Below are positions 43,754 to 60,933 of a DNA stretch of 64,000 nt, piece after piece (position 1 is the stretch's first letter; every line of letters starts with the position of its first letter). Both the position numbers and the translations under genes were made by a program. The stretch is from Patescibacteria group bacterium (GTDB lineage Bacteria > Patescibacteriota > Patescibacteriia > SG8-24). Below the pieces are notes generated by a model that did not search any database, was not told where the DNA came from, and was given only the letters and a program-made list of their open reading frames with translations. The stretch covers positions 6,857 through 70,856 of the forward strand of contig JAQTNC010000005.1 of the NCBI GenBank assembly GCA_028714475.1. The letters are read 5' to 3'.

Positions 43754-43767
43754 GTAATTCGGAAAAA

Positions 43768-43803: not shown

Positions 43804-43870
43804 AGTTTGTCCTGCACGTGGATTCCCGCTTTCGCGGGAATGACATGATCGGGAAGCGCGTTCAAATTCC

Positions 43871-44983: not shown

Positions 44984-45000
44984 TCATGAATCATAGAAAG

Positions 45001-45032
45001 ACCGCCCCGCAGTACTGCGGGGCGGTTTTGAT
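45001..45032 (+). terminator. rho-independent terminator ACCGCCCCGCAGTACTGCGGGGCGGT plus TTTT after dnaJ
   Basis: Perfect stem with a T-run 18 bp after the dnaJ stop. The same CCCCGCAGTACTGCGGGG core is reused at 46403-46428 and (with AATACTG) at 14995-15018. Confidence 0.7.
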
Positions 45033-45277
45033 TTGGTGTGACAGCCTTTAGTCACCGAACACAAATATTGTTCAGTGATTGAGCTTAACATTTCTGGATC
45101 CCCGCTGCTGCGGGGATGGTGAAAATGTTTATGTATTCTTACCACCCCCGCGGAGGCGGGGTCCAGAAACAAGTGTGACATTCATTTATCAGAAACGGTA
45201 CTTGCGTCGAAACCACTCCAATGTTAACCTCGCGCCCTAATTATCAAACTACCTGCCTTGAAGCACTCTAACTAACC

Positions 45278-45651
45278 TTTACCACCCCCGCGGAAGCGGG
45301 GGTCAAGACATGCGGTGGCAAAAATACAGTCGCTATTTCGTCTATATCCTAGCCAGTGGAAAAAACGGCACCCTGTATGTTGGCGTTACGTTGAATCTGG
45401 CGAAGCGGGTGGAGGACCACAAGGCGGGCGCCATCCCGGGCTTTACTGCCAAATACAATGTAAAGCAACTAGTCTATTTTGAAATAGTCGATAATTTCGA
45501 TGCCGCTCTTGCCCGCGAGAAGGCCATCAAAAAATGGAATCGAGCGTGGAAAAATAGAGCTGATTGAGAAAGGGAATCCGTGGTGGAATGACTTGACCAA
45601 CACGGTCGAGTGAGTCTTTCTGGACCCCCGCTTTCGCGGGGGTGGTAAGAG
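45278..45651. mobile_element. MITE-like unit: GIY-YIG nuclease gene bracketed by about 30-bp inverted repeats (45278-45308 and 45620-45651); an additional solo copy of the repeat lies at 45138-45166
   Basis: CTTTACCACCCCCGCGGAAGCGGGGGTCAAG (45278) and the reverse complement of CTGGACCCCCGCTTTCGCGGGGGTGGTAAGAG (45620) are near-identical. The solo copy CTTACCACCCCCGCGGAGGCGGGGTCCAG lies 140 bp upstream. Confidence 0.5.
45310..45567 (+). CDS. GIY-YIG nuclease family protein (YhbQ/UPF0213-like single-domain)
   Basis: 85 aa: YFVYILASGKNGTLYVGVTLNLAKRVEDHKAG...KQLVYFEIVDNFDAALAREKAIKKWNRAWK. GIY...YVG motif, Arg, and the Glu in EIV; typical of the 85-100 aa family. Confidence 0.8.
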   Translation: MRWQKYSRYFVYILASGKNGTLYVGVTLNLAKRVEDHKAGAIPGFTAKYNVKQLVYFEIVDNFDAALAREKAIKKWNRAWKNRAD

Positions 45652-45797
45652 TTTTAGATGACAATATTCAAGTGCCAGGGGGTCTTCCATTTGTCCCTCC
45701 ACCTAGCGAAATGCTATAATTACGATATCCACAGGCGAGCCCCGCCTGTCAGACAGGGCAAAAGCCCCAAGCTAACCTCGGTTCGCCGAATACCGCC

Positions 45798-46379
45798 ATG
45801 TTCCTGATTCCTGCCGCTCAAGCCGCCGAAGCCGCCCCGGATGTCGCGTCCGGTGCCGTTCAGGTTGGCCACAATCTCGCGAACTGGGTATCTGCCATCA
45901 ACTGGGCCGCCCCGACTTGGGACCTGTTCATCGTCCTGTTTTTCATCGTTACCGTCTTCCTCTACGGCATGTCGCTCGGCCGCGACCGCATCGTCGTCAT
46001 CCTCGTCTCTATCTACATGGCTCTCGCGGTCGTCTCGAACGCCCCGTACATCGGCAGCTTGAGGAACGGCGGCGAGCAATATGCCGCCTTCCGCATCGCC
46101 ATCTTCGTCGGCATCTTCATCACCCTGTTTTTCCTGCTTTCTCGATCGGCTCTGCTACGCAACATCGGCAACCTGGCCAACGGCAGCTGGTTCCAGGTGC
46201 TGGCGTTTTCCATCATGCATGTCGGTCTCCTCGTGAGCATCACCTTGTCGCTTCTGCCGCCGGAGGCGCTCGGCAGCCTGGCGCCGGCAACGCGCACCAT
46301 CTTCGTCTCCGACAACGGCCGCTTCTTCTGGATCGTGGCGCCCATAATCAGCATGGCGATGCTCAAGGGAGGGGAGTGA
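45798..46379 (+). CDS. hypothetical multi-pass membrane protein
   Basis: 193 aa with about 5 hydrophobic helices (LFIVLFFIVTVFLYG, IVVILVSIYMALAVV, IAIFVGIFITLFFLL, LAFSIMHVGLLVSITLSLL, FWIVAPIISMAML). Confidence 0.5.
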   Translation: MFLIPAAQAAEAAPDVASGAVQVGHNLANWVSAINWAAPTWDLFIVLFFIVTVFLYGMSLGRDRIVVILVSIYMALAVVSNAPYIGSLRNGGEQYAAFRIAIFVGIFITLFFLLSRSALLRNIGNLANGSWFQVLAFSIMHVGLLVSITLSLLPPEALGSLAPATRTIFVSDNGRFFWIVAPIISMAMLKGGE

Positions 46380-46402
46380 GGCGGATCAAAATGGATATAC
46401 AG

Positions 46403-46428
46403 CCCCCGCAGTACTGCGGGGGTTTTTG
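46403..46428 (+). terminator. rho-independent terminator CCCCCGCAGTACTGCGGGGG plus TTTTT
   Basis: Perfect 9-bp stem and T-run 24 bp after the 45798..46379 gene. Confidence 0.7.
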
Positions 46429-46622
46429 TCGGCAGCCGCTGGTCCGGGCGCGCTGCGCCCGGCTTCCCTCGTTCGACCACTCATCGCACAGCTAAGTGCG
46501 CCTCGTGGTCTCTCTCGGTCCAGCCGAGCACATCGCATCCCGTCCAGCGGCTGCCAAAACCCCGGGCTAACGCCCGGGGTTCGTTGGATGATAATCGTCA
46601 ACTGTCCGCTGTCCACCGACGT

Positions 46623-47309
46623 CTACTCCGCCGGCTCCGTCGGCGCTGGGACTTTCGCCCCGTTGCCAGCCGGCGCCGGCGAGAGGGTCACATCAATCTC
46701 GTCAGCCGTGAAGGAGGCGGCGCGAAGGATATCCTCCTTGGCTACCATAACCGTGAGCGTCTGTCCCGCCCGAAGGTCAGACAACTTGATCTCCGTTTGA
46801 CGGGTGCGGCTCGGCGGCGTCGGTCGCACAGGGGTTTTCCCGGCAGCCAAGTCAGCCGCGTATTGGCGTTGCGCCGCGTTGAATTCCTCGGCCGCCTTGG
46901 CGAGCTCTGCCGACGTCAGCGCCTCGGCCCTGTACAGCTTGGTGTCAGGGCCGACCTTGATTGTGCGTTGGGTGGGAGCCTGCTCGTCAAGCGGATTGCG
47001 GACGGTTTGGTTGGCCTCGATGACCAAAGAATCCGTGCCCACGGTCACGACCTTTCCGGCGAGTCGATGAATGGCCACGTTTTCAGGAAAGATGCGGGAA
47101 TCCGCAATCTTTTTCTGGGCCGACGCATAACCGGCTGCGAAACCGCCGTCAGTGGGATGGGTGCTGCCGACGGCGTAACCAGTGGCGTAAGCCACGGCCA
47201 CAACCACGGCCGCCGCGAGCCACGGCACGTATTTCCTTTTGAGGTGCGGCTTCAGGCCGGCCAAAGCCTTGCCGACGACCGGGGGAATATTTTTTTCTTC
47301 CATAGGCAT
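46623..47309 (-). CDS. hypothetical membrane-anchored Ala/Pro-rich protein
   Basis: Start at an internal Met (MPMEEKNIPP). N-terminal anchor LAAAVVVAVAYATGYAVG, then an extracytoplasmic low-complexity region. No domain recognised. Confidence 0.4.
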   Translation of the reverse strand: MPMEEKNIPPVVGKALAGLKPHLKRKYVPWLAAAVVVAVAYATGYAVGSTHPTDGGFAAGYASAQKKIADSRIFPENVAIHRLAGKVVTVGTDSLVIEANQTVRNPLDEQAPTQRTIKVGPDTKLYRAEALTSAELAKAAEEFNAAQRQYAADLAAGKTPVRPTPPSRTRQTEIKLSDLRAGQTLTVMVAKEDILRAASFTADEIDVTLSPAPAGNGAKVPAPTEPAE

Positions 47310-47448
47310 ATGGTTAATGTCGGTGGTATCATAGCATATTTTTGCCCAAAAAATCATGTCTAAATCCTTGGCTTGTGGACAAGCCGGACAGGGTCGCTAA
47401 CTGGGCGGTTTTGTGTTATAGTTAAAGCGCATTAATATTGAATACGAT

Positions 47449-48351
47449 ATGTCCTTAACGGAAGGGCCAAAAGAGCCAAAAACGGAAAAAACGAGCCGTT
47501 TGGTCAGGCGGATTCACGCCCTCATGCTCGCCGTGGCGGTTTTTGCGTTGTCCGCATTGGCGGGCGGCTCCGTGACGAAGGTCGTGCTGGCTGCCCAGTA
47601 CCAGGAGCCAAGCGGCCAGCCGCCGACCGGCAACATCCCGGTCACGGTCTGGAACGCCTTGGATCTGCCGACCGGCACCGAGGCGCAGGCGGCGGCGATT
47701 TTCGTGAGCGGCGGCGGTCCGCCACCTGCCCGCGTCGGCCTACAGGTCGGCACCAAGGATTTGGACATGGGGGCGAGCGCCGACGGCCAGAACCTGGTAT
47801 ACGGCGTGACTGATTTCGACAAGATGAGTGCCGGCGATCGGCTGATGCTGCTCCAGACGGTGAAGGACAACACCTACACCGACCGGATGGTCGTGAACAA
47901 GACCGGCGACCTTTACGCTTCGGGAGCCATTGTTTCCGGAGGCAACCTCAACACCGACAGCTGTTTCGGTCCGACTTTCCAGGGACTCACGACGACGACC
48001 TACACCGGCAACCTCAACAGCGGAACCCAGGGGTATTATGCCGCTTCGACGGTGTGCGCGGAGATTTTCGGCGCGGGTGCGCACGTTTGTTCCTCCGCGG
48101 AGATGATGAGTAGCCTGAAATGCTCCACGGCTTTTCCGCCGCACAAGATTCGCGACGCGGCCTTGAGCGGCTCCGACGGCTGGATTCAGGATGGCCCGCC
48201 GGGCTACACCGCGCCGGCCCAGGATTGCATGGGTTGGCGGTCCAACGCGCCTGGCAACCTCGGTCGCATGTGGCGTTTTGACGCCGCGACCGGCGGACAG
48301 GGTTACCTAACGACTTGTAATCAGGCGGTCCGTTTTGCCTGTTGCCGCTGA
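47449..48351 (+). CDS. secreted/anchored protein carrying the Cys-rich C-terminal domain shared with the 990-aa fibre protein
   Basis: N-terminal anchor IHALMLAVAVFALSALAGGSV. The C-terminal roughly 110 aa (GPPGYTAPAQDCMGWRSNAPGNLGRMWRFDAATGGQGYLTTCNQAVRFACCR) aligns with the C-terminus of 48368..51346 (GAPGFTKPASNDCAGWTSEAANTYGDFWEFQGDNGGTGYATSCNAKYPIACCR). Confidence 0.55.
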   Translation: MSLTEGPKEPKTEKTSRLVRRIHALMLAVAVFALSALAGGSVTKVVLAAQYQEPSGQPPTGNIPVTVWNALDLPTGTEAQAAAIFVSGGGPPPARVGLQVGTKDLDMGASADGQNLVYGVTDFDKMSAGDRLMLLQTVKDNTYTDRMVVNKTGDLYASGAIVSGGNLNTDSCFGPTFQGLTTTTYTGNLNSGTQGYYAASTVCAEIFGAGAHVCSSAEMMSSLKCSTAFPPHKIRDAALSGSDGWIQDGPPGYTAPAQDCMGWRSNAPGNLGRMWRFDAATGGQGYLTTCNQAVRFACCR

Positions 48352-48367
48352 CGACGGCATTGGCCAT

Positions 48368-51346
48368 ATGCATATGAACCAGAGGTCAGCTACCAAGAGG
48401 ACGATTCTTGCCGCGGCCACGGCATTCATCGCGACGTTCGCGGGAACGACGGCGGCGGTTGCCGCAGTGTGTCCGGACCACAACCCCAACTACTCCATCA
48501 TGTGCACCGGCGGCAATTCCTGGTGCGGCAACACCTGTCAGTCGGAACCGGTTTGCGTCGGCGAAAAATCCAAGGTTGACTGTTCGGGTTGCGGTTGCGT
48601 CTGTCCTGACGCACGGCCGAACGACTGCACGGGCGTGAACGGCCTGTGTCAGGAGACCAACGCCACCTGTGCCGCCCTGCACAAGCAGTCCGTCTGCGAC
48701 GCGACGCCGGGAGCCACCATCCAGCGCTGCGGCAACTGCGTTTCCGGCTATTCGCTCTGCGCGCCGGACACCTGTGTCGTCTCCACCAACCCCGCCTGTC
48801 CGCCGCCGGCCATCTGGGATCCCTGTGCCGGAACGTGTTCAGAAAAATATGTCCTCGCCAATCCGACGCCGGCTCAGTCGCCGCAATCGGTCAACCTGAA
48901 GATGAGCGGCAACATGTCGCTCGTCGGCGGCGACGTCTACCTGGCGAGCAACAAGGCGCTCCGTTTGGACGGCGCCGGACCGACCCTCCTCAACATCGGC
49001 AACTGGGATCTGGCCGGAACATCGGGGAACGTCATGGTTTGGGGCAGTCTGGGCGCCAACGATGGGCTGTTTGCCAACGCCATCTCGACCTTGCCGACGC
49101 CTGTCGGTCAGACGTTCGCCGACCTGCCGCCGAACAACACCGTCTGGACCGACAACATCTGCTTCAACGGCGGCACGAGATGTCGCAACTCCTGGCCGAT
49201 TGGCTTGCCGGAAATCGCCATTGCCGGCCAGACCGTGCGTTATACGGGTTCGGACTGGGTGGCGACATCCTTCCTGACCAACACGGGCACGGCCATCGGC
49301 ATCGGCACGGATACGCCCGGCTGGCCGCTCGACGTGCGCGTGAACGCGAGCACGGCCATGCTGAACCTGGACGACCAACTCGGCACGCTCTGGACCGGCG
49401 TCCGCCTGGCGCGCGTGACCGGCGTTGACCTCAACAAGGAGAAGTGGTTCGTGGGCATGAACAACGCCAATGAGCGGTTGAGCTTCATCCGCGACGGCGT
49501 AGCAACCTCCATGACGCTCGACACCAACGGCCGCGTCGGCATTGGCATCGCCGCGCCATCACAGCTCCTGAACGTCTACGGTGGAAACATCCGGGCGGAA
49601 CGGGGCAATGACGGCCTGAACGTGATGTATCAGCTGGCGAGCGAAACCGTCGGCAAAAGCTGGAGCTTCGGGATGGACGTCGAGGCGGCGGGGGTCGGCG
49701 ATTTCCGCCTCTCGCGCGGCAACTCCCTGAACAGCACCTATCTCTCGGTGTTGGCTGATTCCGGCCGCGTCGGCCTGAAGAACGCCGATCCCGGATTCGC
49801 TTTGGATGTCTCTGCCCAGCCGCCGGCGGATACCACGGCCATCGTTCGGATCGACCAGGGGAGCGGCGCGCCCAAGGTCTGGACCGGCTATCGAATGGAT
49901 CGCGTCCGCGGCGCGGAGCAATGGTTCCTCGGCATGAACGACACGGATGAAACGCTGCGCATTCGGTCTTCGAGCAGCGATGACCGCGTCGTCATTGACT
50001 CGGCGAACGGCAACGTCGGCATCGGCGACAGTACGCCGGCGGCGCTTTTGACGGTCGGCAACAACGAGCGGTTCACGGTTTCTTCGGCAGGCGATGTCGC
50101 GGCGGTCGGCAATTTGGCCGTCGGCGGCGGCCAGCTGACAACCACCTCGGTCGGCACGGCCAACGTCTTCAACACCAGTGCCACGGGGCTGAACATCGGC
50201 GGTGCCGCCTCGAACATGTCCATCGGACCGGGTGGCGCCACCGCCACGTCCATCAACCTCGCGGGCGGCGATACGGCCACCGGCTGCACCTTGAACGGCG
50301 CAACCGGAGATTTGGCCTGCTCGGGCAACATCACCGGCGGCAACGTTGGCAACCAGGGCTATTGGTCGCGCTCCGGCACCACCCTTCAGCCGAAAACCGC
50401 GGGTGACAACATCACCACCTCCGGCAACATCTCGACCACCGGCACCGGCGCTTTGAATATCGCCGGCAACGCGATTTTAGGGGACGGCCCGGGCCACAAC
50501 GTTATTTTCGGCGCCGGCGAAGCCATCCTGCAGGGTGGGCACCTGAACTTCGACTACAATACCTTTTATATTGACGCCGTGAACAACCGCTTGGGCTTCG
50601 GCACCAACGTCCCGGGCTACAAGATCGACGTCAGCTCGTCCTCCGACACCTCGATGATTCGTCTGGATAACGATACCGGCGCGTCGCGGCTGTGGACCGG
50701 CTTGCGGATGGATCGCGTCCGCGGCACGGAGAAATGGTTTCTCGGCATGAATGCCACTGACGAGAGTTTCCGGTTGCGTCGCGACGGCGGGACTGACGAC
50801 GTAATCGTGGATTCGACCGGCAAGGTCGGCATTGGCAGCACCCCATCATACAAGCTGGACGTGGCCGGCACGGTTCGGTCCACCGGCATTCGCATGGAAA
50901 CCGGCGCGGTCAACAACTACGTGCTCACGAGCGACGTGAACGGTCAGGCAAGCTGGCGGCCCATGCAGTACGCCGACGAATGCACGGGCGGCAAGTTCCA
51001 TCACCTGACGGCCGGAACCTACGACGGCAACGACCTCGGCAACTACAAGAACGTCGACAACGTCTGCGACGCCGGGAACCACATCTGCACCCCGGACGAG
51101 ATTCTGCGCACGGTGTACTGTTCGGCGTCCGGCACGCTGCCGGCCAGCGGTAACGCATGGGTCGCTAACGGCGCGCCGGGTTTCACCAAGCCAGCCTCCA
51201 ACGACTGCGCCGGCTGGACATCCGAAGCGGCCAACACCTACGGTGACTTCTGGGAATTCCAGGGCGACAACGGCGGCACGGGTTATGCCACCAGCTGCAA
51301 CGCCAAATACCCGATTGCGTGTTGTCGCGCGTACTGGTGGCTGTGA
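48368..51346 (+). CDS. giant secreted fibre/adhesin-like protein (about 990 aa): Cys-rich N-terminal module, about 130-aa repeat modules, Cys-rich C-terminal lectin-like domain
   Basis: Signal peptide (TILAAATAFIATFAGTTAAVAA). About 20 Cys in residues 30-180. Repeated modules WTGxRLxRVxGxExWFxGMNxxDExxRxRxxGxxxxVxDSxGxVGIG (four or more copies). C-terminal domain ends ...IACCRAYWWL. The start is the internal Met of the track ORF. Confidence 0.7.
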   Translation: MHMNQRSATKRTILAAATAFIATFAGTTAAVAAVCPDHNPNYSIMCTGGNSWCGNTCQSEPVCVGEKSKVDCSGCGCVCPDARPNDCTGVNGLCQETNATCAALHKQSVCDATPGATIQRCGNCVSGYSLCAPDTCVVSTNPACPPPAIWDPCAGTCSEKYVLANPTPAQSPQSVNLKMSGNMSLVGGDVYLASNKALRLDGAGPTLLNIGNWDLAGTSGNVMVWGSLGANDGLFANAISTLPTPVGQTFADLPPNNTVWTDNICFNGGTRCRNSWPIGLPEIAIAGQTVRYTGSDWVATSFLTNTGTAIGIGTDTPGWPLDVRVNASTAMLNLDDQLGTLWTGVRLARVTGVDLNKEKWFVGMNNANERLSFIRDGVATSMTLDTNGRVGIGIAAPSQLLNVYGGNIRAERGNDGLNVMYQLASETVGKSWSFGMDVEAAGVGDFRLSRGNSLNSTYLSVLADSGRVGLKNADPGFALDVSAQPPADTTAIVRIDQGSGAPKVWTGYRMDRVRGAEQWFLGMNDTDETLRIRSSSSDDRVVIDSANGNVGIGDSTPAALLTVGNNERFTVSSAGDVAAVGNLAVGGGQLTTTSVGTANVFNTSATGLNIGGAASNMSIGPGGATATSINLAGGDTATGCTLNGATGDLACSGNITGGNVGNQGYWSRSGTTLQPKTAGDNITTSGNISTTGTGALNIAGNAILGDGPGHNVIFGAGEAILQGGHLNFDYNTFYIDAVNNRLGFGTNVPGYKIDVSSSSDTSMIRLDNDTGASRLWTGLRMDRVRGTEKWFLGMNATDESFRLRRDGGTDDVIVDSTGKVGIGSTPSYKLDVAGTVRSTGIRMETGAVNNYVLTSDVNGQASWRPMQYADECTGGKFHHLTAGTYDGNDLGNYKNVDNVCDAGNHICTPDEILRTVYCSASGTLPASGNAWVANGAPGFTKPASNDCAGWTSEAANTYGDFWEFQGDNGGTGYATSCNAKYPIACCRAYWWL

Positions 51347-51395
51347 CCGCTATCCGCAATCCTCCTAATTTCGCCAACAATTTTTTGGAAAAATT

Positions 51396-54300
51396 ATGAA
51401 CAGGCACAACAACTTCGCGGCGCGGCTCGGGGATTGGTCGATTTCCCTGGTCGGTCCGGCGGTCATCGTAGGCGTTTTAGGTTGGATGGTCGGCGTGCAA
51501 CCGGTGCTCGCGGTTGACAAGTGCAAGGATTTTGGCCTGCCGTCCTTTAAATGTCCCGCGACCGCGACCCACGACGTCTGCGGAACGTCCCCGTTTTTCT
51601 ACTGTTTTTCCGGGGCTGATGACGCCTGCACCGGCGGCACTCCGGCACCGAACTACATTTTTGACTGTGAGAGCTGCTCCTGCAAATGTGATACCGCCAA
51701 TTTTCCCTGCGCCGGCTGTGCGGCCACGTCCGTGACGCCGGGGGGGAACTGTTCCCCGCCCAACAACGGTAAATACGCGAACGGCTGTCCGGAATCCTGC
51801 ACCTGTCCTTCCGGCACGACTAGGTGCATCAGCACCAACACCTGCGTCACCAATCAGTCCTGCCCGACCGGCATGACCTTCGACCCCTGCCTTCCTGGCT
51901 GCGTCACCCCGTACATCCTGCGCAGCCCAGCCACCGTGCAGGCCAACGCTTTCATTAATATAGACGGCAACGTCAAGACCGGCGGCGACCTGTATATGGC
52001 GGACGGCAAGGCCGTGCGTCTGGACAGCGCTGGGGCGACGGTGCTCAACATCGGCAATTGGGGCGGCGGCTCGTTCGCGGTCCGCGCTTTCGGTGCCTTG
52101 ACCGCTGACGGACGGATCGGTTCCGGAGCCCCTTCGCCGGCGTATCGGTTGGACATCGTGAGTGGCACCGACACCCAGGACATCCTTAATCTCAACGATC
52201 AGGACGGCAACGCCGCCAGCCGCGTCTGGACCGGCACCCGCTTGGCGCGTGAGTCCACGGAAAAGTGGTACATCGGCATGAACGCCACTTCTGACGATTT
52301 GCTCATGTCACGTAACGGCGGCGGCGTCGGCAACACCTCAATCTTCGTGAGCAACGCGACTGGCGATGTCGGTGTCGGCACGACCAACCCGACCGGCACT
52401 CTCTCCGTCGGCAACGGCGCCGTGACCCTTTTCTCGGTGGATGGCGCGACCGGCGACGTGGTGACGGCCGGCAACCTGGCCGTGAACGGCGGCAACCTCA
52501 CGACGACCGCCGGAATCTTCAACATCGCCGGCACGGCCTCGACCGTGAACCTCGGTGGCGGCGCGGCAAGCACCGGCTGTACCTTGGATGCCGACGGCAA
52601 TTTGGTCTGTGCCGGCACCATTACCTCATCCGGTTCCGGCGGCGGCGGCGCGGTCGGCTATTGGCAGCGCGGCGGCACGACCCTTTCGCCGGCGACAACC
52701 GACGATACCATCAGTACCGGCGGCAACATCATGACCACGGGCTCGGGGAGCATCACCTCGAACGGAAACCTGACGGTCAAGGGCGTCACCGTCTTGGGCG
52801 ACAATCCGGCGACGGACACGCTGACCCTGAACCTGCTGGACGTTCTCGTGCCGGGTGGCTTGAGTATCGACGCCGGCACGCTTTACGTTGATCCGGTCAA
52901 CAATCGCGTCGGCATCAGCCAAACCATCCCCGGTTACCGGTTCGACGTCAGCGCGGACAACGATTCGACCGCCATCGTACGCATTAATGACGACCGGGAC
53001 GGCAACACCGCCACGCGGCTTTGGACCGGCACGACGCTGTCGCGAGAAAGCCTGGAAAAATGGTTCCTCGGCATGAACGGCACCGATGACGACTTCACGC
53101 TCAACCGCAACGGCGGCGGGAGCGCGCTGACCGTGCTTAACAGCAACGGCTACGTTGGCATCGGCACGGACGACCCCGCGTCCCGTCTCGACGTCAATGG
53201 AACGGTCACATCGACCGGCATCGCGCTGGCTGGCGACTACACGCAGACCTCGGGCAATTTCACCTTCTCCGGCGGTGGCACGTTCTCGACCAGCGCGGCG
53301 AACACCACCCTCGGCACGACCAACATCGTGGCTGGCAAGACCATTACCCTCGGCGCCGCGGCCGGCGACCCGGCTGGCGCGAACGGCGCGATGTACTACA
53401 ACACCACCACCAACAACTTTCGCTGTTTCCAGGGCGGTGGCTGGACGGACTGTTATTCCGACGGCGCGGCAGTCGGGAGCGGCGTGAACGGGCAGGTCGT
53501 CTTCTGGACCGGCACGCGGTCCGTGGCCGGCGACAACGGTTTCTTCTGGGACAACATCACCAAACGCCTCGGCCTCGGCACGGTTAGCCCCGCATACCCC
53601 CTGGACATCCGCAACGACGGCGCCACGGGCACGACCGAGATGCGCCTCAATAACGACAACGCGACGAGGCTCTGGACCGGTACGGCGCTGTCGCGCCAGT
53701 CGAGCGAGAAATGGTTCATCGGCATGAACAGTAGCAACGATGACTTAAGCATCACGAGGAACGGCGATACCACCTCGATGCTGTCCGTCAGCAACGCGAC
53801 CGGCGACGTGACCGTGACGAACAACCTGGCCGTGAACGGCGGCACCATCTCCACGACGGCCGCAACGTTCAACCTGGCGCCGTCGGCAACGACCGTGAAC
53901 ATCGGCGGCGGCAGCGGCTCCACCGGCTGTTCCGTGGACGTGAACGGCAACCTCATCTGTTCAGGAACCATTTCGTCTGGCGGCGGCGGCGCGGTCGGCT
54001 ATTGGCAACGCGCTGGGACGACGCTCTCGCCGGCGACGGCGGGCGACGTCATCGCCACTTCCGGTGACATCCAGACGACGGGGGCGGGCAACATCCAGAC
54101 GACGGGCACCGGCGGCATCACGTCTAACGGCAACCTCTCCGTCAAGGGCAATACGACCTTGGGCGACGCTTTCGGCGACACCTTGACCATTAGCGGCCAG
54201 GCCGTCAACATCCCGAGCGGCCTCCTTTTCGGCGGCAACGCGCTGTTTTTGAGCAACAACACCAAGCGCGTCGCCATCGGCGCCGCTTCGGCCAGCTACC

Positions 54301-57140
54301 GTCTCGACATCGTCTCGGCCAACGACTCGCAAGTCATCATGCGGCTTAATGACGACAAGAACTACCCGACGTCACGGCTCTATACCGGCACGACTCTTTC
54401 GAGGGCCGGCACCGAGAAGTGGTTCCTCGGCATGAACTCCACGGACGACGACTTCACACTCAACCGCAACGCCGGTGCCAGCTCATCGTTCACCGTCCTA
54501 AACAGCAACGGCAACGTCGGCATCGGCACGGACAACCCTGCCCAGCCGCTCGACGTGAACGGCACGGCTCAAGTGGCCGGTTTCAAGATGCCGACCGGTG
54601 CGGCGGCCGGAAAGGTACTGATGTCGGACGCCAACGGCGTCGGCACTTGGCAACCCGTGGGGGTTGGTTCTGGTGTCGTGGCTGGTTCCGGCACGGCCGG
54701 ACAGGTGACATTCTGGGACGGTTCTTCTTCCATCACCGGCGACAACGCCCTTTACTGGGACAACGCCAGTAAACAGCTCGGCGTCGGCACCAACAGTCTC
54801 GTCGCCAGGCTGACCGTGGATGCGAGCGCCGGTGGCGAGGGCTTGAGCATCGCCACTTCAGCCGCGAGCAGTCCGCTCGACATCACTTCCGGCGGGCTGT
54901 CTGTCTTCAACGTTTCTCCGAGCGGCGGCGTGACGGCCGCGGAATCAGTGACCGCACCCTACGTCGGTGGCGCTTGGGTGGACGGCTCTTACCTAAGCGT
55001 CACGGGCGACGGCACGGTCGCCCGCATCACGACCGGGCACAATGATGCGGCGGAATTCTCCCAAATCATTTATAATTCAGCGAACGGCAGTGGCATCTCG
55101 GCTTACTCTAACGGCGGGACGGCGGCTTCTTTCGGCACCGGTAACGGCGTCGGGGGCGGCGCCTTGCCTCTCCGGTTGAGCACGAATTCCGGCAACGGCA
55201 TGAAGGAAATCTTGCGTCTGACGCGCGGCATATTCGGTGCTGGCGCCAATGGTGACGGCGGCAAGATCGTGTTTGAGAACGAGAAGTCCGACCAGACTTA
55301 CGGCGAGGTGGCAGGCATCGCTGGCATCACCGCTAACGCGAACCCCCTTCAGTGGCGCGGCGCGATGGCTTTCTACACGGTTCAAGACGGCGTTGAGCGC
55401 GAACGCGTCCGCATCGCGGAAAGCGGGGCGGTCGGCATCAATACAGATTCGCCGACCGAGATGCTGGAGGTGAATGGCGGCTACATCAAGTCCAACTGGG
55501 GTTTCTGCATCAACGCATCCTGCATCACCAGCTGGCCGACGGGCGGCGGCGGAACGGTCACGGGCAGCGGGACGCCCAGCTACGTGCCGAAATGGACGGG
55601 CGCCTCGGCCTTGTCGAACTCCCTGATTTATGATACCGGCTCTAATGTCGGCATCAGCGTCACCTCGCCCCAGAGCAAATTGGACGTGCAGGGAAATTTC
55701 CGGGTCGGTGGCGGCGATGGCATCCTTAACGTCGAAGCCCGAGGCTCCACGTACGGCTCCGAGACGCTGGCCATGCAGACGACCATCGACAACCGCAAGA
55801 TCAGCGACGGCTTTCCGTATGGGGGAGATGACCGGTACGTTCTCGCCCTGCAGCCCGACTATGGCCGCGTTGGCATCGGCACGGCGAGTCCGCGCAACAA
55901 GCTGGACGTGTGGGGCGGGGAAATCAACGTTACCGGCGCCGACATCAACGGCACCGCAGTCATTACTTCGAACGCCGGCACCGCCTATTACGGGAACAAC
56001 GCCTACGACAACGGCATCGCCATCGATCCCAGCGGCAATGTCGGCATCGGCGTGGCGCCGGGAGCCAAACTGCAGGTGCAGGGCGCCGGTGGCGTCAACG
56101 TTGATATGGTGGTCAACGGCCGCATCATGACCGGCGACGCCGGGGCTTCGGGCGGCATGTGGATCGATTCGGGCATGACCCGGTTCGTGGGCGACGACGG
56201 GGCCGGGGGCGTGGGCATCTGGAACAACGGTTGGCAGTTAGGGGTTTACCCCACTTACGTTAACGTTGCCCAGGGCCTGTCGATTTGGGGCTACACCGAC
56301 CTAACCGGGTTTACCGATTGGGGCGATGCTACGGTGACAGGATACCTGACGGTCAATGGCGGACCCGGCAACGCGGCCTTTAGTGTCGCGTCTCCGGCCG
56401 ATGTCACCATGCAGGCCATCCGCGCCGACGGCACCGGCAACTATACAGCCTTGTTCAACAATAGTGGTGCCACGAATGTCGCGACGATTGGGGTCAACAG
56501 CACCAACGGTTCCGCAGCCGCTTTCTCTACGGGAAATGCGGCTAAACCCGCAGTTACCATCTCCGCATCGGACAATAATTCGCAGGCCCTGCATGTCCAT
56601 CAAGGTCGCATTGGCATTATGGTCGATTCGCCTTCTTACCCCTTGGACATAGCCGGATCAGCGCACGCCACTGGTAGCTGGTTGACGTCAGATGTCCGTT
56701 GGAAGAAGGACGTACGGACCATCGATGACGCCCTCGAAAAGGTCAATGAGTTGCGCGGCGTCACGTTCTACTGGAAGACCGTCGAGTATCCGAACAAGGG
56801 ATTTGACGATCGGCAACACCTGGGCCTGATTGCCCAGGAGGTCGAGCCGGTTCTGCCGCAGGTCGTCAGCACCGACAATCAGGGCTATAAGTCGGTCGCG
56901 TATGATACGCTGGCCGCCCTGCTCGTCGAGGCCGTCAAGGAAGTCGACCAACAGGCAGTCAAGCTGGCTCCCGATGGCAGCGTGGTGCTGACCGGTGATT
57001 TGCAGGCCAACGAAAACCGATGGGGCGCGGCCAGCAACTGGATAGCCTGCCCCGAAAAAGGCGAGTGCGCCTGCCCGAACGGCTCCTACGTGACGCAGAT
57101 AAAGGATCGTGGCACTTGGATTCAATGTCATAAGCTCTAG
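51396..57140 (+). CDS. giant secreted fibre-like protein (1914 aa) with a Cys-rich N-terminal module, many repeat modules and a C-terminal phage tail-fibre S74 intramolecular-chaperone domain
   Basis: N-terminal anchor/signal. A Cys-rich module homologous to those of 48368 and 58818. Repeats RLWTGTxLSRESxEKWFLGMNxTDDDFTLNRNGG...NSNGxVGIGTDxP. A C-terminal SDVRWKKDVRTIDDALEKVNELRGVTFYWK...QHLGLIAQEVEPVLPQVV..GYKSVAYDTLAALLVEAVKE matches the Peptidase_S74 chaperone-of-endosialidase domain. Confidence 0.75.
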   Translation: MNRHNNFAARLGDWSISLVGPAVIVGVLGWMVGVQPVLAVDKCKDFGLPSFKCPATATHDVCGTSPFFYCFSGADDACTGGTPAPNYIFDCESCSCKCDTANFPCAGCAATSVTPGGNCSPPNNGKYANGCPESCTCPSGTTRCISTNTCVTNQSCPTGMTFDPCLPGCVTPYILRSPATVQANAFINIDGNVKTGGDLYMADGKAVRLDSAGATVLNIGNWGGGSFAVRAFGALTADGRIGSGAPSPAYRLDIVSGTDTQDILNLNDQDGNAASRVWTGTRLARESTEKWYIGMNATSDDLLMSRNGGGVGNTSIFVSNATGDVGVGTTNPTGTLSVGNGAVTLFSVDGATGDVVTAGNLAVNGGNLTTTAGIFNIAGTASTVNLGGGAASTGCTLDADGNLVCAGTITSSGSGGGGAVGYWQRGGTTLSPATTDDTISTGGNIMTTGSGSITSNGNLTVKGVTVLGDNPATDTLTLNLLDVLVPGGLSIDAGTLYVDPVNNRVGISQTIPGYRFDVSADNDSTAIVRINDDRDGNTATRLWTGTTLSRESLEKWFLGMNGTDDDFTLNRNGGGSALTVLNSNGYVGIGTDDPASRLDVNGTVTSTGIALAGDYTQTSGNFTFSGGGTFSTSAANTTLGTTNIVAGKTITLGAAAGDPAGANGAMYYNTTTNNFRCFQGGGWTDCYSDGAAVGSGVNGQVVFWTGTRSVAGDNGFFWDNITKRLGLGTVSPAYPLDIRNDGATGTTEMRLNNDNATRLWTGTALSRQSSEKWFIGMNSSNDDLSITRNGDTTSMLSVSNATGDVTVTNNLAVNGGTISTTAATFNLAPSATTVNIGGGSGSTGCSVDVNGNLICSGTISSGGGGAVGYWQRAGTTLSPATAGDVIATSGDIQTTGAGNIQTTGTGGITSNGNLSVKGNTTLGDAFGDTLTISGQAVNIPSGLLFGGNALFLSNNTKRVAIGAASASYRLDIVSANDSQVIMRLNDDKNYPTSRLYTGTTLSRAGTEKWFLGMNSTDDDFTLNRNAGASSSFTVLNSNGNVGIGTDNPAQPLDVNGTAQVAGFKMPTGAAAGKVLMSDANGVGTWQPVGVGSGVVAGSGTAGQVTFWDGSSSITGDNALYWDNASKQLGVGTNSLVARLTVDASAGGEGLSIATSAASSPLDITSGGLSVFNVSPSGGVTAAESVTAPYVGGAWVDGSYLSVTGDGTVARITTGHNDAAEFSQIIYNSANGSGISAYSNGGTAASFGTGNGVGGGALPLRLSTNSGNGMKEILRLTRGIFGAGANGDGGKIVFENEKSDQTYGEVAGIAGITANANPLQWRGAMAFYTVQDGVERERVRIAESGAVGINTDSPTEMLEVNGGYIKSNWGFCINASCITSWPTGGGGTVTGSGTPSYVPKWTGASALSNSLIYDTGSNVGISVTSPQSKLDVQGNFRVGGGDGILNVEARGSTYGSETLAMQTTIDNRKISDGFPYGGDDRYVLALQPDYGRVGIGTASPRNKLDVWGGEINVTGADINGTAVITSNAGTAYYGNNAYDNGIAIDPSGNVGIGVAPGAKLQVQGAGGVNVDMVVNGRIMTGDAGASGGMWIDSGMTRFVGDDGAGGVGIWNNGWQLGVYPTYVNVAQGLSIWGYTDLTGFTDWGDATVTGYLTVNGGPGNAAFSVASPADVTMQAIRADGTGNYTALFNNSGATNVATIGVNSTNGSAAAFSTGNAAKPAVTISASDNNSQALHVHQGRIGIMVDSPSYPLDIAGSAHATGSWLTSDVRWKKDVRTIDDALEKVNELRGVTFYWKTVEYPNKGFDDRQHLGLIAQEVEPVLPQVVSTDNQGYKSVAYDTLAALLVEAVKEVDQQAVKLAPDGSVVLTGDLQANENRWGAASNWIACPEKGECACPNGSYVTQIKDRGTWIQCHKL

Positions 57141-57145
57141 AGCAA

Positions 57146-57180
57146 AAAGCCGTCTGGCCAAGCCAGACGGCTTTTTTAGC
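57146..57180 (+). terminator. rho-independent terminator AAAAAGCCGTCTGGCCAAGCCAGACGGCTTTTTT after the 1914-aa gene
   Basis: Perfect 11-bp stem, a 4-nt loop and a T-run starting 6 bp after the stop. Confidence 0.8.
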
Positions 57181-57345
57181 GCTGAAGTACTGGAGTACTG
57201 AAGAGCTGAAGAAATTGCTGGAATCTTTTTTTGCCAAGTTTTTCCTCTTCAGCACTTCAGTACTTCTGCACTCCTGCACTGACTTCTCCAGCACCCCGGC
57301 ACTTCCCAACTCCGCCCTTTTCGGCTATATTTATTGCTGGACCAT

Positions 57346-58779
57346 ATGCTAAAATTATTCGATAGTTTAGCCAAGAAAAAGCGCGTGTTCAAGCCGCTTC
57401 AGGCCGGACGGGTGACGATGTATAACTGCGGGCCGACGGTGTACGACTACGTCCATATCGGCAACCTGCGGTCTTTCCTGCTGGCCGACCTCGTGCGCCG
57501 CTTCCTTGATCACCGCGGTTTTGAGGTGCGGCAAGTGATGAACATCACCGACGTCGGCCACATGCTGGCGGACGCGGATGTCGGCGAGGACAAGCTCGAG
57601 GTTTCGGCCGCCAAGGCCGGCAAGACGCCCGCCGAAGTGGCCAGGTTCTTCACCGAGGCTTTTTTTCGTGACATTGATCGGCTCGGCGTGCGGCGCGCCG
57701 CCATGTATCCGCGGGCGAGCGAGCACGTGCCGGAGATGATCGCCATGATCGGCCGGCTCCTGGAGAAGGGCTGCGCCTACAAGGTTCAGGAAACCGACGG
57801 CGGCGCCAGCATATATTTTGACGTCTCGACTTTTCCGGAATACGGCCGGCTTTCCGGCAACGTCATCGAGGGGCTGAATCCCGGCGCCCGCGTTGACGTG
57901 CGCTCCGAGAAGAAACATCCGGCTGATTTCGCCCTCTGGATCCACAATCCGAAGCACCTCATGCAATGGGAAACGCCGTGGGGCAAAGGCTATCCCGGCT
58001 GGCACATCGAGTGCTCGGCCATGTCCACCAAATACCTGGGTGACACCATCGACATCCATACCGGCGGCGAGGACAACAAGTTTCCTCATCACGAGTGCGA
58101 GATCGCGCAGGCTGAGTGCGCCACTGGCCAGAAGTTCGTCCGTTATTGGCTGCACGGCACCCACCTTCTGGTGGATGGCGAGAAGATGTCAAAATCCAAA
58201 GGCAACTTTTATACGCTCGACGACCTCACGGCCAAAGGTTACGAGCCGCGCCATGTCCGCTACCTCCTCCTCTCCTCGCATTATCGGGCGCCGCTCAATT
58301 TCACCTTGGCGGGTCTCGATGCGGCCAAGTCCGCCTTGGCCCGTCTCGACAATTTCGCGGATCTGTTGCGGGATTATGCGCCGAAGAAAAACGGCCGGAG
58401 CGATCGGGTCGGGATGACGGCGATGAAAGGCCTGAATCAGGCCCTGGATGACGATCTGAACGTGGCCGAAGCGCTGGCCGCGGCCTTTGAGCATGTCCAC
58501 GCGATCAATGAGCGCTTGGCTTCCGGCGAACTGACGGCCCGCGAAAAGGCCGGCGCCGAGGCTTTTATGAAGGCCCTAGGCGATGTTTTCGGTTTCGTTT
58601 TCGGCCGCGCCGCCGATGAGGCCGACGTGCCAGCCTCGGTCCGGGAACTCATGGAGAAACGCGAAACGGCGCGCCGTGAAAAGCGTTTCGTCGAATCGGA
58701 CCGCGTGCGCGACGAGATCAAGGCGCTCGGCTGGATGGTCGAGGATACGCCGGAAGGCTGTCGCGTCAAGCGGCTGTAA
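57346..58779 (+). CDS. cysS: cysteine--tRNA ligase
   Basis: [20 protein letters not shown] (HIGH-type motif HIGN). The Zn-binding Cys residues (C at NCGPT, HIECSAM). KMSKS at [10 protein letters not shown]. The alternative start at 57334 is in frame. Confidence 0.9.
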
Positions 58780-58817
58780 GTCGCCGCCAGTGTCGGTCAT
58801 CATCCTAGACATCGATT

Positions 58818-59897
58818 ATGATCAATAGTCGCCAACTGATCGCCGCCAGTGCCGTGACCCTCGCGCTGCTTGTGGCCGCGCCGGCGTTGGCCAAGGACCG
58901 CTGTCGCGATTGGGGACAGCCGTCGTTCAAGTGTCCGACCACGGCCACGCGCGCGGTCTGCGGCAAGGAGCCTAACTTGTACTGCTTTGACGATCGCGGC
59001 AACCCGAACGCCGACCTTTGTTCCGGCGTCACTCCCGCGCCTCGCTTCAAGTTCGATTGCGAGACCTGCACCTGTCGGTGCGACGAGGAAAAATATCCCT
59101 GTGACGGTTGTTCTTCCGCCAAGAACGCCTTAGGCGCCACGTGCAACGGCGTCGTCGGCGGCGCCTACGTTGACCGTTGCGGCACCTGCGGCTGCGGCGC
59201 CGGCACGGCCATCTGCGTATCCACGAATACCTGCGTGACGATTGTGGACTGCCCGACTGGTTTCGGTTTCGAACCGTGTTCGGCCGCCTGTATCCCTGGT
59301 TTCGTCACCCCGACCGCGACTGTTGAGCCGCCAGTGCCGCCGTCAGGAGAAACGTCGACCGCGCCGAGTTCGGCAGCTGACCAGATTGCCGCCGCGCCTG
59401 CCGCGCCAGCCGACGGCCGTCCGGAAGAGCTTCCGGCTGGCGAGATGGGGGAGCGGCAGGCTGAAACGGCGGACGGTTCGGCTTTCGGTTGGACATTGGT
59501 CCTCCTCGCGGCCTTCGTGGCTGGCCTCGGGTTAGGCAGTTATTTCTCCGGCCGTTTCGGCCGTCCCGGGCGCGTCGAAACCCCGTTTCACGGCGTCGTG
59601 GAAAAAATCAGCGGCCGCGAATTGAGCCTGACCGTTGGGCAAGGGCGTGATCGTCGACGTCTCTCGGTGAGCGTCGGGCCAGCCGCGGAAATCAACGCCT
59701 TGACCCTGCCGGAAGAAGGCGAAGGCCGTCTTGAACGCCATCATATACCGCTTGCGTGCCTGCGGCCTCATGACACGGTGGAGGTCGCGATGACGCAAAC
59801 CAAGCCCGACAAGAAGCTGATTGCCGACTCGGTCGCGCTCATGACCACCGACGCGACGCTGGCCAGAAGGCGGGCGTGCCTGAAGGAAGATGCGTAG
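58818..59897 (+). CDS. single-pass membrane protein with an extracytoplasmic Cys-rich module homologous to the N-termini of the two giant fibre proteins, plus a cytoplasmic C-terminal domain
   Basis: Signal peptide. DRCRDWGQPSFKCPTTATRAVCGKEPNLYCF...FDCETCTCRCD aligns with DKCKDFGLPSFKCPATATHDVCGTSPFFYCF...FDCESCSCKCD of 51396. An Ala/Pro/Ser linker, TM FGWTLVLLAAFVAGLGLGSYF, then about 120 cytoplasmic residues. Confidence 0.55.
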   Translation: MINSRQLIAASAVTLALLVAAPALAKDRCRDWGQPSFKCPTTATRAVCGKEPNLYCFDDRGNPNADLCSGVTPAPRFKFDCETCTCRCDEEKYPCDGCSSAKNALGATCNGVVGGAYVDRCGTCGCGAGTAICVSTNTCVTIVDCPTGFGFEPCSAACIPGFVTPTATVEPPVPPSGETSTAPSSAADQIAAAPAAPADGRPEELPAGEMGERQAETADGSAFGWTLVLLAAFVAGLGLGSYFSGRFGRPGRVETPFHGVVEKISGRELSLTVGQGRDRRRLSVSVGPAAEINALTLPEEGEGRLERHHIPLACLRPHDTVEVAMTQTKPDKKLIADSVALMTTDATLARRRACLKEDA

Positions 59898-59976
59898 ATT
59901 CGTAGTTGCGGGGACACAATAATGCGGAGGGCTTTCGCTCTCCGCATCTTTGAATCTTCGAATTATTGCGTCATGC

Positions 59977-60933
59977 CTACAGCCATTTCCGGCTCTTGAG
60001 GTAACCCATTGTCGCGACCATGACCAAGAAGACGATGCCGAGCATGAACCAGAAGTCGCCCGGCACCCCCAGGAGCGGCATATTCTCCGCGCGCATCGAG
60101 AAGATGGCGGCGGCGAGATTCATCGGAAAGACGATGAAGGCCAGGGCCGTCAGCGTCTTGGTCGCCTGGCCGGTCTCATAGGTGACGAGCGAAAGGTAGG
60201 ACTCGTACACGGCGTCAATCGTGTTGCGGTCGTTATCGAGGAAATCCCATATCTCCTGCGTGTGGCCGACCAGGTCCTCGTAATAGACGTGCAGATCCTG
60301 GAAATGGAGGATGCGCGGCGCGACGGCGATGAATTTCTCCAGGACGTGCTTGTGGGCCTGCATGATGCGCCGGAAGTCCACGATGTTGGACTTGACCCGC
60401 AGGATTTCCTTGACTGAGCTGTTCTGGGCGTCAGTGAACATGCGCGACTCCAGGGTGTTGATGTCGTTGGAGACGTGCGTGAGCATCGGAAAGCAGCCGA
60501 TGTACAGCTGGTTTAGCATGGCATGCAACCAATCGGCCGGACGTTCCACCTCCTGCGCCATCGTCACGCTGCGATCGCCGCGGAACAACTCGGCCATGCT
60601 CTGGAGCGGCGGCAGGACGCCGAAATGGTTGGTGACGATGAAATTTGGGCCGATGAAGATGTCCAGTTCCGTTGATCGGATGGCTCGCTTGTCCCGATCA
60701 AAATACGGGAACAGCATGACCATGAACAGGTACTGTCCGCGTTCCAGGAGCTTCGGGCGCTGGTAAGGCGGCAAACAGTCCCGCAGGTCCATTTCGAGGA
60801 AGAACGGGAAAAGCTCCTTGAGCTTGGCGCTGGCCTCGGCCGACGGCTTCCTGACGTCCACCCAGGTCATTTCCGGATGGCGATAGACGTCGAGGAGCGG
60901 CTGACCGTCGTATTTTGGCATTTTTTCGTGCAT
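59977..60933 (-). CDS. CorA-family divalent cation transporter homologue lacking the canonical GMN motif
   Basis: The C-terminus TLTALAFIVFPMNLAAAIFSMRAENMPLLGV...LKSRKWL aligns with the CorA pore region (LT..ATIF.PLTFIAGIYGMNFE.MPEL...KKKKWL). SMR occupies the GMN position. Confidence 0.6.
   Translation of the reverse strand: MHEKMPKYDGQPLLDVYRHPEMTWVDVRKPSAEASAKLKELFPFFLEMDLRDCLPPYQRPKLLERGQYLFMVMLFPYFDRDKRAIRSTELDIFIGPNFIVTNHFGVLPPLQSMAELFRGDRSVTMAQEVERPADWLHAMLNQLYIGCFPMLTHVSNDINTLESRMFTDAQNSSVKEILRVKSNIVDFRRIMQAHKHVLEKFIAVAPRILHFQDLHVYYEDLVGHTQEIWDFLDNDRNTIDAVYESYLSLVTYETGQATKTLTALAFIVFPMNLAAAIFSMRAENMPLLGVPGDFWFMLGIVFLVMVATMGYLKSRKWL

Follow-up and report, generated by a model that had tools for sequence, protein, structure and literature searches.

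A conserved four-cysteine module follows the S74 chaperone domain in a surface fibre protein of Patescibacteria

INTRODUCTION

The Patescibacteria (CPR) are believed to lead a life of attachment to other microbes, and to our knowledge little is known of their attachment structures beyond type IV pili. In the 64,000-nucleotide stretch of DNA analysed here (the window), one gene encodes a protein in which an S74 intramolecular chaperone domain is followed by a short Cys-bearing tail. The original prediction viewed this domain against phage tail spikes, where it forms the extreme C-terminus and is removed by autocleavage, and proposed that the released fragment might have a signalling or anchoring function of its own. 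The question is what such a tail might do behind a domain that is expected to cut itself off. Our literature search turned up no earlier account of S74 fibres from Patescibacteria.

RESULTS AND DISCUSSION

A chromosomal fibre gene built on a MAT-like plan

The protein has 1914 residues, and its parts run in order from a signal peptide through a Cys-rich N-terminal domain, a long repetitive shaft and the S74 chaperone to a four-Cys tail. The gene as a whole, its N-terminal domain and its transcript end are located as follows (window coordinates).

51396..57140, + strand: whole gene, 1914-aa secreted surface fibre protein (ORF listing)
51516..51929, + strand: N-terminal Cys-rich domain, aa 41 to about 178 (homology to a neighbouring membrane protein)
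57144..57177, + strand: intrinsic terminator directly 3' of the stop codon at 57138-57140 (RNA fold)

The terminator, which a terminator scanner missed and RNA folding revealed, consists of a GC stem (57149-57158/57162-57171) followed by U6 (dG -28.5 kcal/mol, z = -6.6). A second, independent Logan assembly encodes an identical 1914-aa protein. Since the protein is the same in an independent assembly and its stop codon is followed by a strong terminator, the tail is the true C-terminus and not the product of a frameshift.

The gene lies between dnaJ and cysS in a chromosomal island (hrcA-grpE-dnaK-dnaJ … cysS-corA) of a Patescibacteria MAG, the host being an uncultured Uhrbacteria-like Patescibacteria bacterium. 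Because the neighbours dnaK, dnaJ, cysS and corA are housekeeping genes and the synteny of the island is kept in related genomes, we rejected a prophage origin, and with it the phage tail-spike setting of the original prediction. The protein belongs to a set of several paralogous surface fibres whose tips differ, its sisters carrying other Cys-rich ends, and its shaft is homologous to the upstream paralogue (E 2e-66).

At the other end of the chain, a signal peptide is predicted from the sequence at aa 1-39, with cleavage at VLA|VD. The Cys-rich domain behind it shares 47% identity (E 2e-40) with the N-terminus of the membrane protein encoded at 58818..59897, and it also heads the tail-bearing fibres P0122, P0123, P0125 and P0138; it is likely the cell-proximal docking end. 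The motif VGIG..P...L is repeated along the shaft.

This architecture recalls the MAT (mosaic adhesive trimeric) fibres of Bdellovibrio bacteriovorus, in particular their S74 subgroup (e.g. Bd3182), which are likewise chromosomally encoded bacterial surface fibres with a signal peptide, a conserved N-terminal domain and a long shaft, trimeric in MAT, that bears VG..P...L-type loops (PMC10769870). The shaft motif found here resembles the capping-loop motif of MAT fibres, and MAT paralogues, like the fibres of this lineage, have as their tip an S74 SDxxxK chaperone in some cases and a different end in others (PMC10769870). As an architectural match only, the protein belongs to the MAT-like fibre class. 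It differs in coming from another phylum and in having a Cys-rich N-terminal domain; moreover, MAT S74 proteins stop at the S74 domain, whereas here a conserved four-Cys module follows a shortened helix.

The S74 domain and its catalytic dyad

The shaft end and the chaperone domain occupy three consecutive segments.

56613..56687, + strand: final stalk turns ahead of the predicted cleavage site, GIMVDSPSYPLDIAGSAHATGSWLT (alignment with the MyRF beta-helical stalk in 7dc3)
56688..56867, + strand: Peptidase_S74 core as modelled by Pfam, aa 1765-1824 (PF13884 match)
56868..56957, + strand: remainder of the chaperone domain including the shortened terminal alpha-helix (AF2)

The core matches Peptidase_S74 (PF13884) with E 2.8e-17 and 63.2 bits against a cut-off of 22, over profile positions 1-57 of 58. 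Its motif TSDVRWKKD (nt 56685-56711) follows the SDxxxK pattern, with S1765 (56688-56690) as the predicted nucleophile and K1770 (56703-56705), five residues on, as the predicted general base. Both residues are invariant in the 18 aligned proteins that combine S74 and tail, and they align with the S587(A)/K592 positions of MyRF as well as with the motifs of the S16 and T5 fibres. The AF2 model of the domain (pLDDT 79-96) has the fold of solved chaperone domains, as judged by Foldseek (7dc3, E 4.4e-5; 3gw6, E 4.3e-3; 3gud, E 4.8e-3). The S74 assignment of the original prediction is thus borne out, and its dyad proves conserved on proper alignment. The same fold and Ser-Lys dyad follow the beta-helical fibre in the phage chaperone domains of endoNF (3GW6), phi29/GA-1 gp12 (3GUD), T5 pb1 and S16 gp37 (6F45), all covered by PF13884 and MEROPS S74; the best match in both sequence and structure is the ICA domain of MyRF (7DC3; PMC8326128).

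In MyRF the chain is cut N-terminal to the Ser, between P586 and S587 (PMC8326128), and by this precedent the scissile bond is predicted to be T1764|S1765. The stretch from S1765 to L1914 is exactly 150 aa, in agreement with the fragment of roughly 150 residues originally expected from a cut at the Ser. In the Bdellovibrio fibre Bd3182, S74 self-cleavage has been demonstrated experimentally (PMC10769870). The invariance of the dyad across divergent S74+tail proteins implies that cleavage is under selection, in which case the tail would be removed together with the chaperone.

A shortened helix and an additional mini-domain

The Pfam model stops 60 aa into the chaperone, which runs on via a helix to about aa 1856, so that the tail starts only about there. 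Two segments follow.

56958..57014, + strand: junction, aa 1855-1873, VKLAPDGSVVLTGDLQANE (kept only among S74+tail proteins)
57015..57137, + strand: four-Cys tail core, aa 1874-1914, NRWGAASNWIACPEKGECACPNGSYVTQIKDRGTWIQCHKL (conservation, AF2)

The terminal helix (aa 1836-1853, nt 56901-56954; H97-114 of the 175-aa AF2 model) is about 18 aa long. Only 15 residues follow the LVEA motif, whereas in 118 tail-less homologues the median is 27 (5-95%: 25-53) and the helix about 12 residues longer. In MyRF, C-terminal elements, chiefly the terminal helix, drive the trimerisation that cleavage requires (PMC8326128). The junction has a mean pairwise identity of 46% in 19 proteins and an AF2 pLDDT of 66-77. 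S74 domains of clearly distinct subtypes carry the tail, and the helix junction at which they are joined to it, K-E-L-D…K-L..DG, is conserved.

Of the last 203 aa, no more than 72% is covered by any of the 120 nearest S74 homologues (47-53% identity); every one of these ends 82-141 aa past the Ser in a K/E/Q-rich helix, and just one has any Cys. In 47 PHROG phage families the match is confined to query residues about 21-154, mostly ending at 140-146, and among the PHROG matches listed the aligned part falls at the end of the phage profile or close to it. About 57 residues (aa 1858-1914) are therefore extra, close to the figure of about 55 given at the outset and with the four Cys that were noted then. 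The premise that S74 forms the extreme C-terminus accordingly stands for phage families, where the domain ends in a coiled coil or helix bundle, but not in general, given that MyRF also has sequence after it (PMC8326128). The protein studied here departs from the usual combination of extreme C-terminal position and long trimerising helix: it is encoded by a cellular gene, its helix is short, and 57 further, Cys-rich residues lie beyond the coverage of PHROG and Pfam models. It is not a copy of the MyRF arrangement either, for there the domain is followed by a long coiled coil, a transmembrane helix and an ER-tethering luminal domain, whereas the present tail is soluble, about 57 aa long and without a membrane segment.

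The module core comprises some 41 residues with the consensus N.WG..SGWI.CP..GEC.CP.G.YVT.I.DRG..I.C.KL. The four Cys (C1885, C1891, C1893 and C1911, codons 57048-50, 57066-68, 57072-74 and 57126-28) and one Gly are invariant across 28 sequences. With a mean pairwise identity of 55%, compared with 33% for S74 and 16% for the shaft end, the core is the best-conserved segment of the C-terminus. AF2 models it with pLDDT 81-89, the monomer showing only a small sheet of three short strands. The tail had no match in Pfam, NCBIfam or PHROG and its profile none among PDB sequences; Foldseek found no fold match (best E 1.6 in the PDB and 2.0 in BFVD). The four-Cys tail is an undescribed, lineage-specific mini-domain.

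Several known identities were considered and rejected. An EGF-like domain would have six Cys rather than four; cEGF reached at best E 0.018, below threshold, in 3 of the 28 members, and the tail of the window had no match. The end of the protein (…DRGTWIQCHKL) has no hydrophobic stretch and no NCBIfam match, which speaks against LPXTG, PEP-CTERM, MYXO-CTERM and similar C-terminal sorting signals. About 90 of 122 HMMER matches to the tail were WD40 proteins, aligned over query aa 2-27 only through their repeated SPDGK.VLTGS.D.TA.LWD motif; the likeness, which concerns the junction, is due to chance, since the window has a single copy of the motif and a WD40 protein requires several tandem blades of about 40 aa.

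Distribution of the tail and alternative roles

Among 1.84 billion proteins the tail was found in 27 representative clusters and was the extreme C-terminus in all of them. It follows an S74 domain in 18 clusters and occurs without S74 in nine; in a syntenic orthologue (L004) it sits straight on the shaft. Five tail-only proteins are short and lipoprotein-like, and a tail-only lipoprotein, P0168 (275 aa), is encoded between S74 fibres of the same island, including the tail-bearing P0132. The tail-only fibres of L004 and L008 and the tip of the paralogue had no match in Pfam, NCBIfam or PHROGs. A protein search with the tail alignment A1 returned nothing but 22 word candidates, and a locus search with the tighter alignment A2 gave four genome loci, two metagenome loci and no viral loci. 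In PHROG, BFVD and the viral locus searches there was no phage family or viral contig with the tail. A six-frame scan of the window detected one tail only and no tail-only lipoprotein. A protein downstream of cysS at locus L001, also with a Cys-rich C-terminus, is unrelated to the tail (hhalign probability 1%).

Could the tail be a neutral read-through extension or an artefact? Missing database annotation is all that would favour this, and conservation already refutes it: a search of 1.84 billion proteins with just the tail gives homologues down to E 2.4e-16, which excludes chance, and its four Cys are invariant. With the strong terminator and the identical second assembly added, the probability of such an explanation is negligible.

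The distribution also bears on the released fragment with an autonomous signalling or anchoring function. Its size and conserved dyad are right, and a conserved tail must be functional somehow; yet the same tail ends S74-less proteins that could never release it, and thus its role cannot depend on release by autocleavage. The surroundings offer no receptor, regulatory neighbour or anchoring motif, and neither in phage nor in MAT systems is a later role known for S74 chaperones once they are released (PMC10769870). With nothing found in its support, we regard this original proposal as very improbable.

A distal binding knob, that is, an EGF-like or lectin-like adhesive tip kept in place because S74 stays uncut or the fragment remains bound, would suit the nine S74-less clusters and L004, where the tail is the permanent exposed terminus of protease-less fibres. 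The C-x-C-P-x-G stretch has a weak EGF-like flavour (the cEGF matches above), and sister fibres of the island bear other Cys-rich tips. Against it, Ser and Lys are invariant in 18/18 S74+tail proteins, implying cleavage, the tail is far more conserved than a host-recognition tip would be expected to be, and it is only about 41 aa long with no fold match. Such a knob seems unlikely.

Alternatively, the tail may be a docking or recognition tag, a conserved handle by which a lineage-specific partner tethers or sorts the fibre C-terminus until S74 cleavage. The partner could be a further tail copy, borne by the small tail-only lipoproteins of the island, or else a factor of export or quality control. 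Consistent with this, the tail is the most conserved segment and always terminal, P0168 is encoded among S74 fibres that include the tail-bearing P0132, and in MyRF S74 cleavage frees the trimer from a tethered C-terminal part (PMC8326128). However, the window itself has no tail-only lipoprotein, the loci L006-L010 share no conserved tail-specific neighbour gene, and the tail has no hydrophobic or sortase-type signal. We consider a docking tag rather unlikely. A more elaborate version is quite improbable: the tail would be a docking module, homotypic or disulfide-exchanging, by which the fibre C-terminus is tethered, for example to island lipoproteins, and S74 cleavage a MyRF-like release switch that either deploys a trimeric fibre of roughly 1,760 residues from the episymbiotic CPR cell surface or leaves a trimeric, disulfide-linked product of 150 aa that has a role of its own.

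A possible trimer cap

Our preferred reading, held tentatively and at a little under even chances, is that the tail is a C-terminal trimer cap, stabilised by disulfides, which works alongside the chaperone and departs with it as part of the 150-aa fragment. The protein would be a trimeric cell-surface fibre on the MAT-like plan with an exchangeable C-terminal end. By analogy with endoNF, T5 pb1, Bd3182 and MyRF, three S74 copies would associate and template the folding of the upstream beta-helical shaft, after which S74 would cut the chain between T1764 and S1765. The tail stands where the trimerising coiled coil of other chaperones has its distal part, and it would set and lock the register of the three chains, possibly through disulfides between chains at the invariant C-x-C. 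Where S74 is present, the cap would work as a part of the chaperone and be discarded in the 150-aa fragment, and in S74-less fibres it would be retained as a permanent end-piece.

The T4 fibritin foldon and the interchain cystine knots of collagen are small C-terminal elements of trimer registration. Like them, the tail is a short terminal module on a presumably trimeric fibre, and its C-x-C recalls interchain disulfide knots; this is an analogy, with no sequence or fold similarity to either detected. That the tail core is the most conserved segment fits a role in assembly and argues against a diversifying receptor-binding tip. However, high conservation fits recognition of a conserved partner equally well, five of the tail-only proteins are short, lipoprotein-like and at most putatively trimeric, and against a cap that is only a folding aid it may be said that there is no evident reason why ordinary S74 coiled coils should not suffice in this lineage. 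What we observe directly are the domain identities, the conserved dyad, a tail that is both conserved and modular, a terminal helix shorter than usual and the chromosomal setting; cleavage, trimerisation, disulfides and the cap function we infer from these.

The finding refines known biology without overturning it. In an Uhrbacteria-like lineage, phage-like, S74-type surface fibres, presumably matured by S74, form a variable set within a fixed chromosomal island, in parallel with the prey-recognition fibres of Bdellovibrio. Their four-Cys mini-domain can replace part of the S74 trimerising helix or to end a fibre alone. If it is indeed a compact, disulfide-locked trimerisation cap, it would represent a new solution for registering trimeric fibres and, possibly, a small fusion tag.

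The S74 domain and the end of the fibre protein

The fibre gene belongs to a set of related coding regions:

51396..57140, + strand: fibre gene, a single ORF of 1914 aa
48335..51346, + strand: paralogous fibre of 1003 aa immediately upstream, homologous in the shaft (E 2e-66)
58818..59897, + strand: 359-aa membrane protein after cysS, with an N-terminal Cys-rich domain as in the fibre (47% identity, E 2e-40)

The sole Pfam domain in the fibre is Peptidase_S74 (PF13884; aa 1765-1824, E 2.8e-17, 63 bits at a cut-off of 22 bits). The Pfam model accounts for no more than the chaperone's first 60 residues, and the domain runs on to a terminal helix, aa 1836-1853 in the AlphaFold2 model. Domains of the S74 family form trimers, act as chaperones for the upstream beta-helix and cut N-terminal to a Ser by means of a Ser-Lys dyad. 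In the fibre both S1765 and K1770 lie within the motif TSDVRWKKD. When PDB sequences were searched, this region aligned with the MyRF ICA domain (7dc3, E 1.7e-7), where S1765 pairs with the site of the S587A mutation and K1770 with K592, and also with the S16 long tail fibre (6f45) and T5 pb1 (8hqz). The model of the last 175 aa has a pLDDT of 79-96 across the S74 domain, and Foldseek matched it to MyRF ICA (E 4.4e-5), phi29-type gp12 (3gud) and endoNF (3gw6). The original prediction was to be given up if the dyad proved not conserved on alignment; it is invariant in 18 of 18 aligned relatives. The size of roughly 150 residues predicted for the fragment, should autocleavage occur, also agrees with the sequence, S1765 to L1914 being 150 aa.

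The same prediction held that about 55 additional residues with four Cys follow the domain, and its structural reading was largely right: about 57 residues (aa 1858-1914; Cys at 1885, 1891, 1893 and 1911) lie beyond anything in ordinary S74 proteins. We consider this tail to be extra because the nearest homologues stop short of it. Alignments with the 120 S74 proteins nearest in sequence (47-53% identity) span no more than 72% of the fibre's final 203 residues; all these proteins end in a K/E/Q-rich helix 82-141 aa past the Ser, and Cys is present in only one of them. Likewise, 47 PHROG phage tail-fibre/baseplate families match only residues ~21-154 of the 203-aa query, most stopping at 140-146, and in the matches shown the phage profile ends with the aligned stretch or shortly after it. 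After the LVEA motif, the fibre has 15 residues before the tail versus a median of 27 (5-95%: 25-53) in 118 tail-less homologues. The tail therefore occupies the usual place of the distal coiled coil.

Directly after the stop codon RNA folding revealed a strong intrinsic terminator (57144..57177; GC stem 57149-57171 followed by U6; dG -28.5 kcal/mol, z -6.6), a rho-independent terminator detected by folding only, as a consensus terminator scan gave no call there. An exact copy of the protein occurs in an independent Logan assembly. We therefore take the C-terminus to be genuine. The idea that the tail is an artefact can practically be dismissed.

The tail as a conserved terminal module

A HMMER scan of the last 60 aa against 1.84 billion representative proteins gave 122 matches. 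Around 90 were WD40 proteins hitting residues 2-27 only, through their repeated SPDGK.VLTGS.D.TA.LWD; we rejected these as chance resemblance. The attracting stretch is the WD40-blade-like junction (56961..57035, aa 1856-1880; LAPDGSVVLTGDLQANENRWGAAS).

The true tail is found in 27 representatives and is the extreme C-terminus in all of them. In 18 it is preceded by an S74 domain, and the distance from the Ser to the protein end is 145-155 aa in the S74+tail loci checked. The nine others comprise five short lipoprotein-like proteins, the remainder being long fibres. The consensus reads GDL.A..N.WG.GSGWI.CP..GEC.CP.G.YVTKI.DRG..I.C.KL; its four Cys and a single Gly never vary, and W28, P40, G52 and the final Leu hardly do. 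Visibly different S74 subtypes are joined to the tail via a conserved helix junction (…KELD…K-L..DGS.V.GDL).

Mean pairwise identity by segment among 19 S74+tail proteins
Shaft end: 16%
S74 domain: 33%
Junction: 46%
Tail core: 55%

Two tail-only fibres, P0133 (about 9300..9700 of locus L008) and P0192, have a distinct conserved segment before the tail (…PVALNGRV.TKVS.ENG.I.VGDPITTSS.PGVGM.A..PGMIIGYAL…). It has no match in Pfam or PHROG and may represent a further type of fibre end.

The tail itself has no match in Pfam or NCBIfam, nor does its profile match PDB sequences. Per-member Pfam scans yielded only sub-threshold cEGF hits (3 of 28 members, E 0.018), owing to the C-x-C-P-x-G motif. In the AlphaFold2 model the core is a sheet of three strands (SNWIAC / YVTQIK / WIQCH; pLDDT 81-89), and Foldseek searches of PDB (best E 1.6) and BFVD (best E 2.0) retrieved no relative.

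A cellular island with a variable fibre slot

The original prediction had placed the domain in a phage-spike setting. This is contradicted by the neighbouring dnaK (39108), dnaJ (43871), cysS (57334) and corA (59977, minus strand), and by island synteny: relatives keep the order hrcA-grpE-dnaK-dnaJ-(small ORFs)-[fibre genes]-cysS-corA, with a varying fibre slot. The fibre gene is thus cellular, not phage. No tRNA or Rfam element was found within the window, and at the sensitivity used no IMG/VR viral contig encodes the tail. The window CysS matches the CysS of an NCBI 'MAG: Patescibacteria group bacterium' at 100% identity, the next relatives being Candidatus Uhrbacteria.

Content of the fibre slot in related loci
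L006: 1242-aa S74+tail fibre
L007 (Uhrbacteria GCA_016929435.1): 853-aa S74+tail fibre
L001: S74+tail fibre
L008: 1551-aa fibre with tail, without S74
L004: fibre with tail, without S74
L009: fibre ending in another Cys-rich tip
L010: no fibre
JGI contig (sample 3300075153): three S74 fibres next to a tail-only lipoprotein of 275 aa

The island (about 39100..60900 in the window; L006-L010; JGI contig) is a conserved hot spot which, in related Patescibacteria, holds between 0 and 4 fibre genes that differ in their ends. Searches for the tail gave four loci in GTDB representative genomes and two in JGI metagenomes. Three of the four genome loci (L001, L002, L004) are 5-6 kb contigs in MAGs labelled Vicinamibacterales, Gammaproteobacteria and Acutalibacteraceae. 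Since L001 and L004 carry the Patescibacteria fibre-cysS synteny (their CysS being 74% identical to the window CysS), these short contigs are probably mis-binned.

The upstream paralogue starts with a signal peptide and a Cys-rich N-domain and ends in another Cys-rich tip, ~125 aa long (YADECTGG…ACCRAYWWL), which also terminates the first fibre of L006 and L009 and has no match in Pfam or PDB sequences. The shaft of the 1914-aa fibre consists of repeated modules (for example at aa 270-310, 540-580, 750-790 and 990-1030): the unit (R/K)LWTGT.L.R...EKWF.GMN..DD....R.G, in at least four copies, and the frequent turn VGIGT..P...LDV.G. The upstream paralogue has both modules too. In the 359-aa protein the signal peptide and N-terminal Cys-rich domain lead into a Pro-rich linker, then a transmembrane helix and finally a cytoplasmic part. 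The protein is a candidate for docking the fibres at the membrane through their N-terminal domains. The architecture parallels that of Bdellovibrio MAT fibres, with a common N-terminal domain, a long shaft and S74 or non-S74 tips; S74 self-cleavage was experimentally demonstrated for one of them, Bd3182 (PMC10769870).

Possible role of the tail

The reading that we favour, at somewhat below even chances, is that the tail is a disulfide-stabilised C-terminal cap fixing the register of three chains. Trimerisation of MyRF, without which it is not cleaved, is driven mainly by its C-terminal coiled coil (PMC8326128). In S74 proteins the tail would replace the truncated coiled coil in this role and depart with the 150-aa fragment; in fibres lacking S74 it would be a permanent end-piece. 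Such a cap accounts for the strictly terminal position, for occurrence with and without S74, for conservation exceeding that of any neighbouring segment, for the conserved helix junction and for the invariant C-x-C. The tail-only lipoprotein of the JGI island might instead point to a conserved docking or recognition tag, which we regard as unlikely. Still less probable is a retained adhesive knob, given the invariant S74 dyad and the high conservation of the tail. An autonomous released fragment with a signalling or anchoring function, as originally proposed, is unsupported and very improbable, because the same tail also ends S74-less proteins that cannot release it.

The fibre appears to be an S74-matured bacterial surface fibre, and its four-Cys end a previously undescribed, lineage-restricted terminal module. 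Its relevance to the cell surface of CPR bacteria and to how trimeric fibres fold is moderate.
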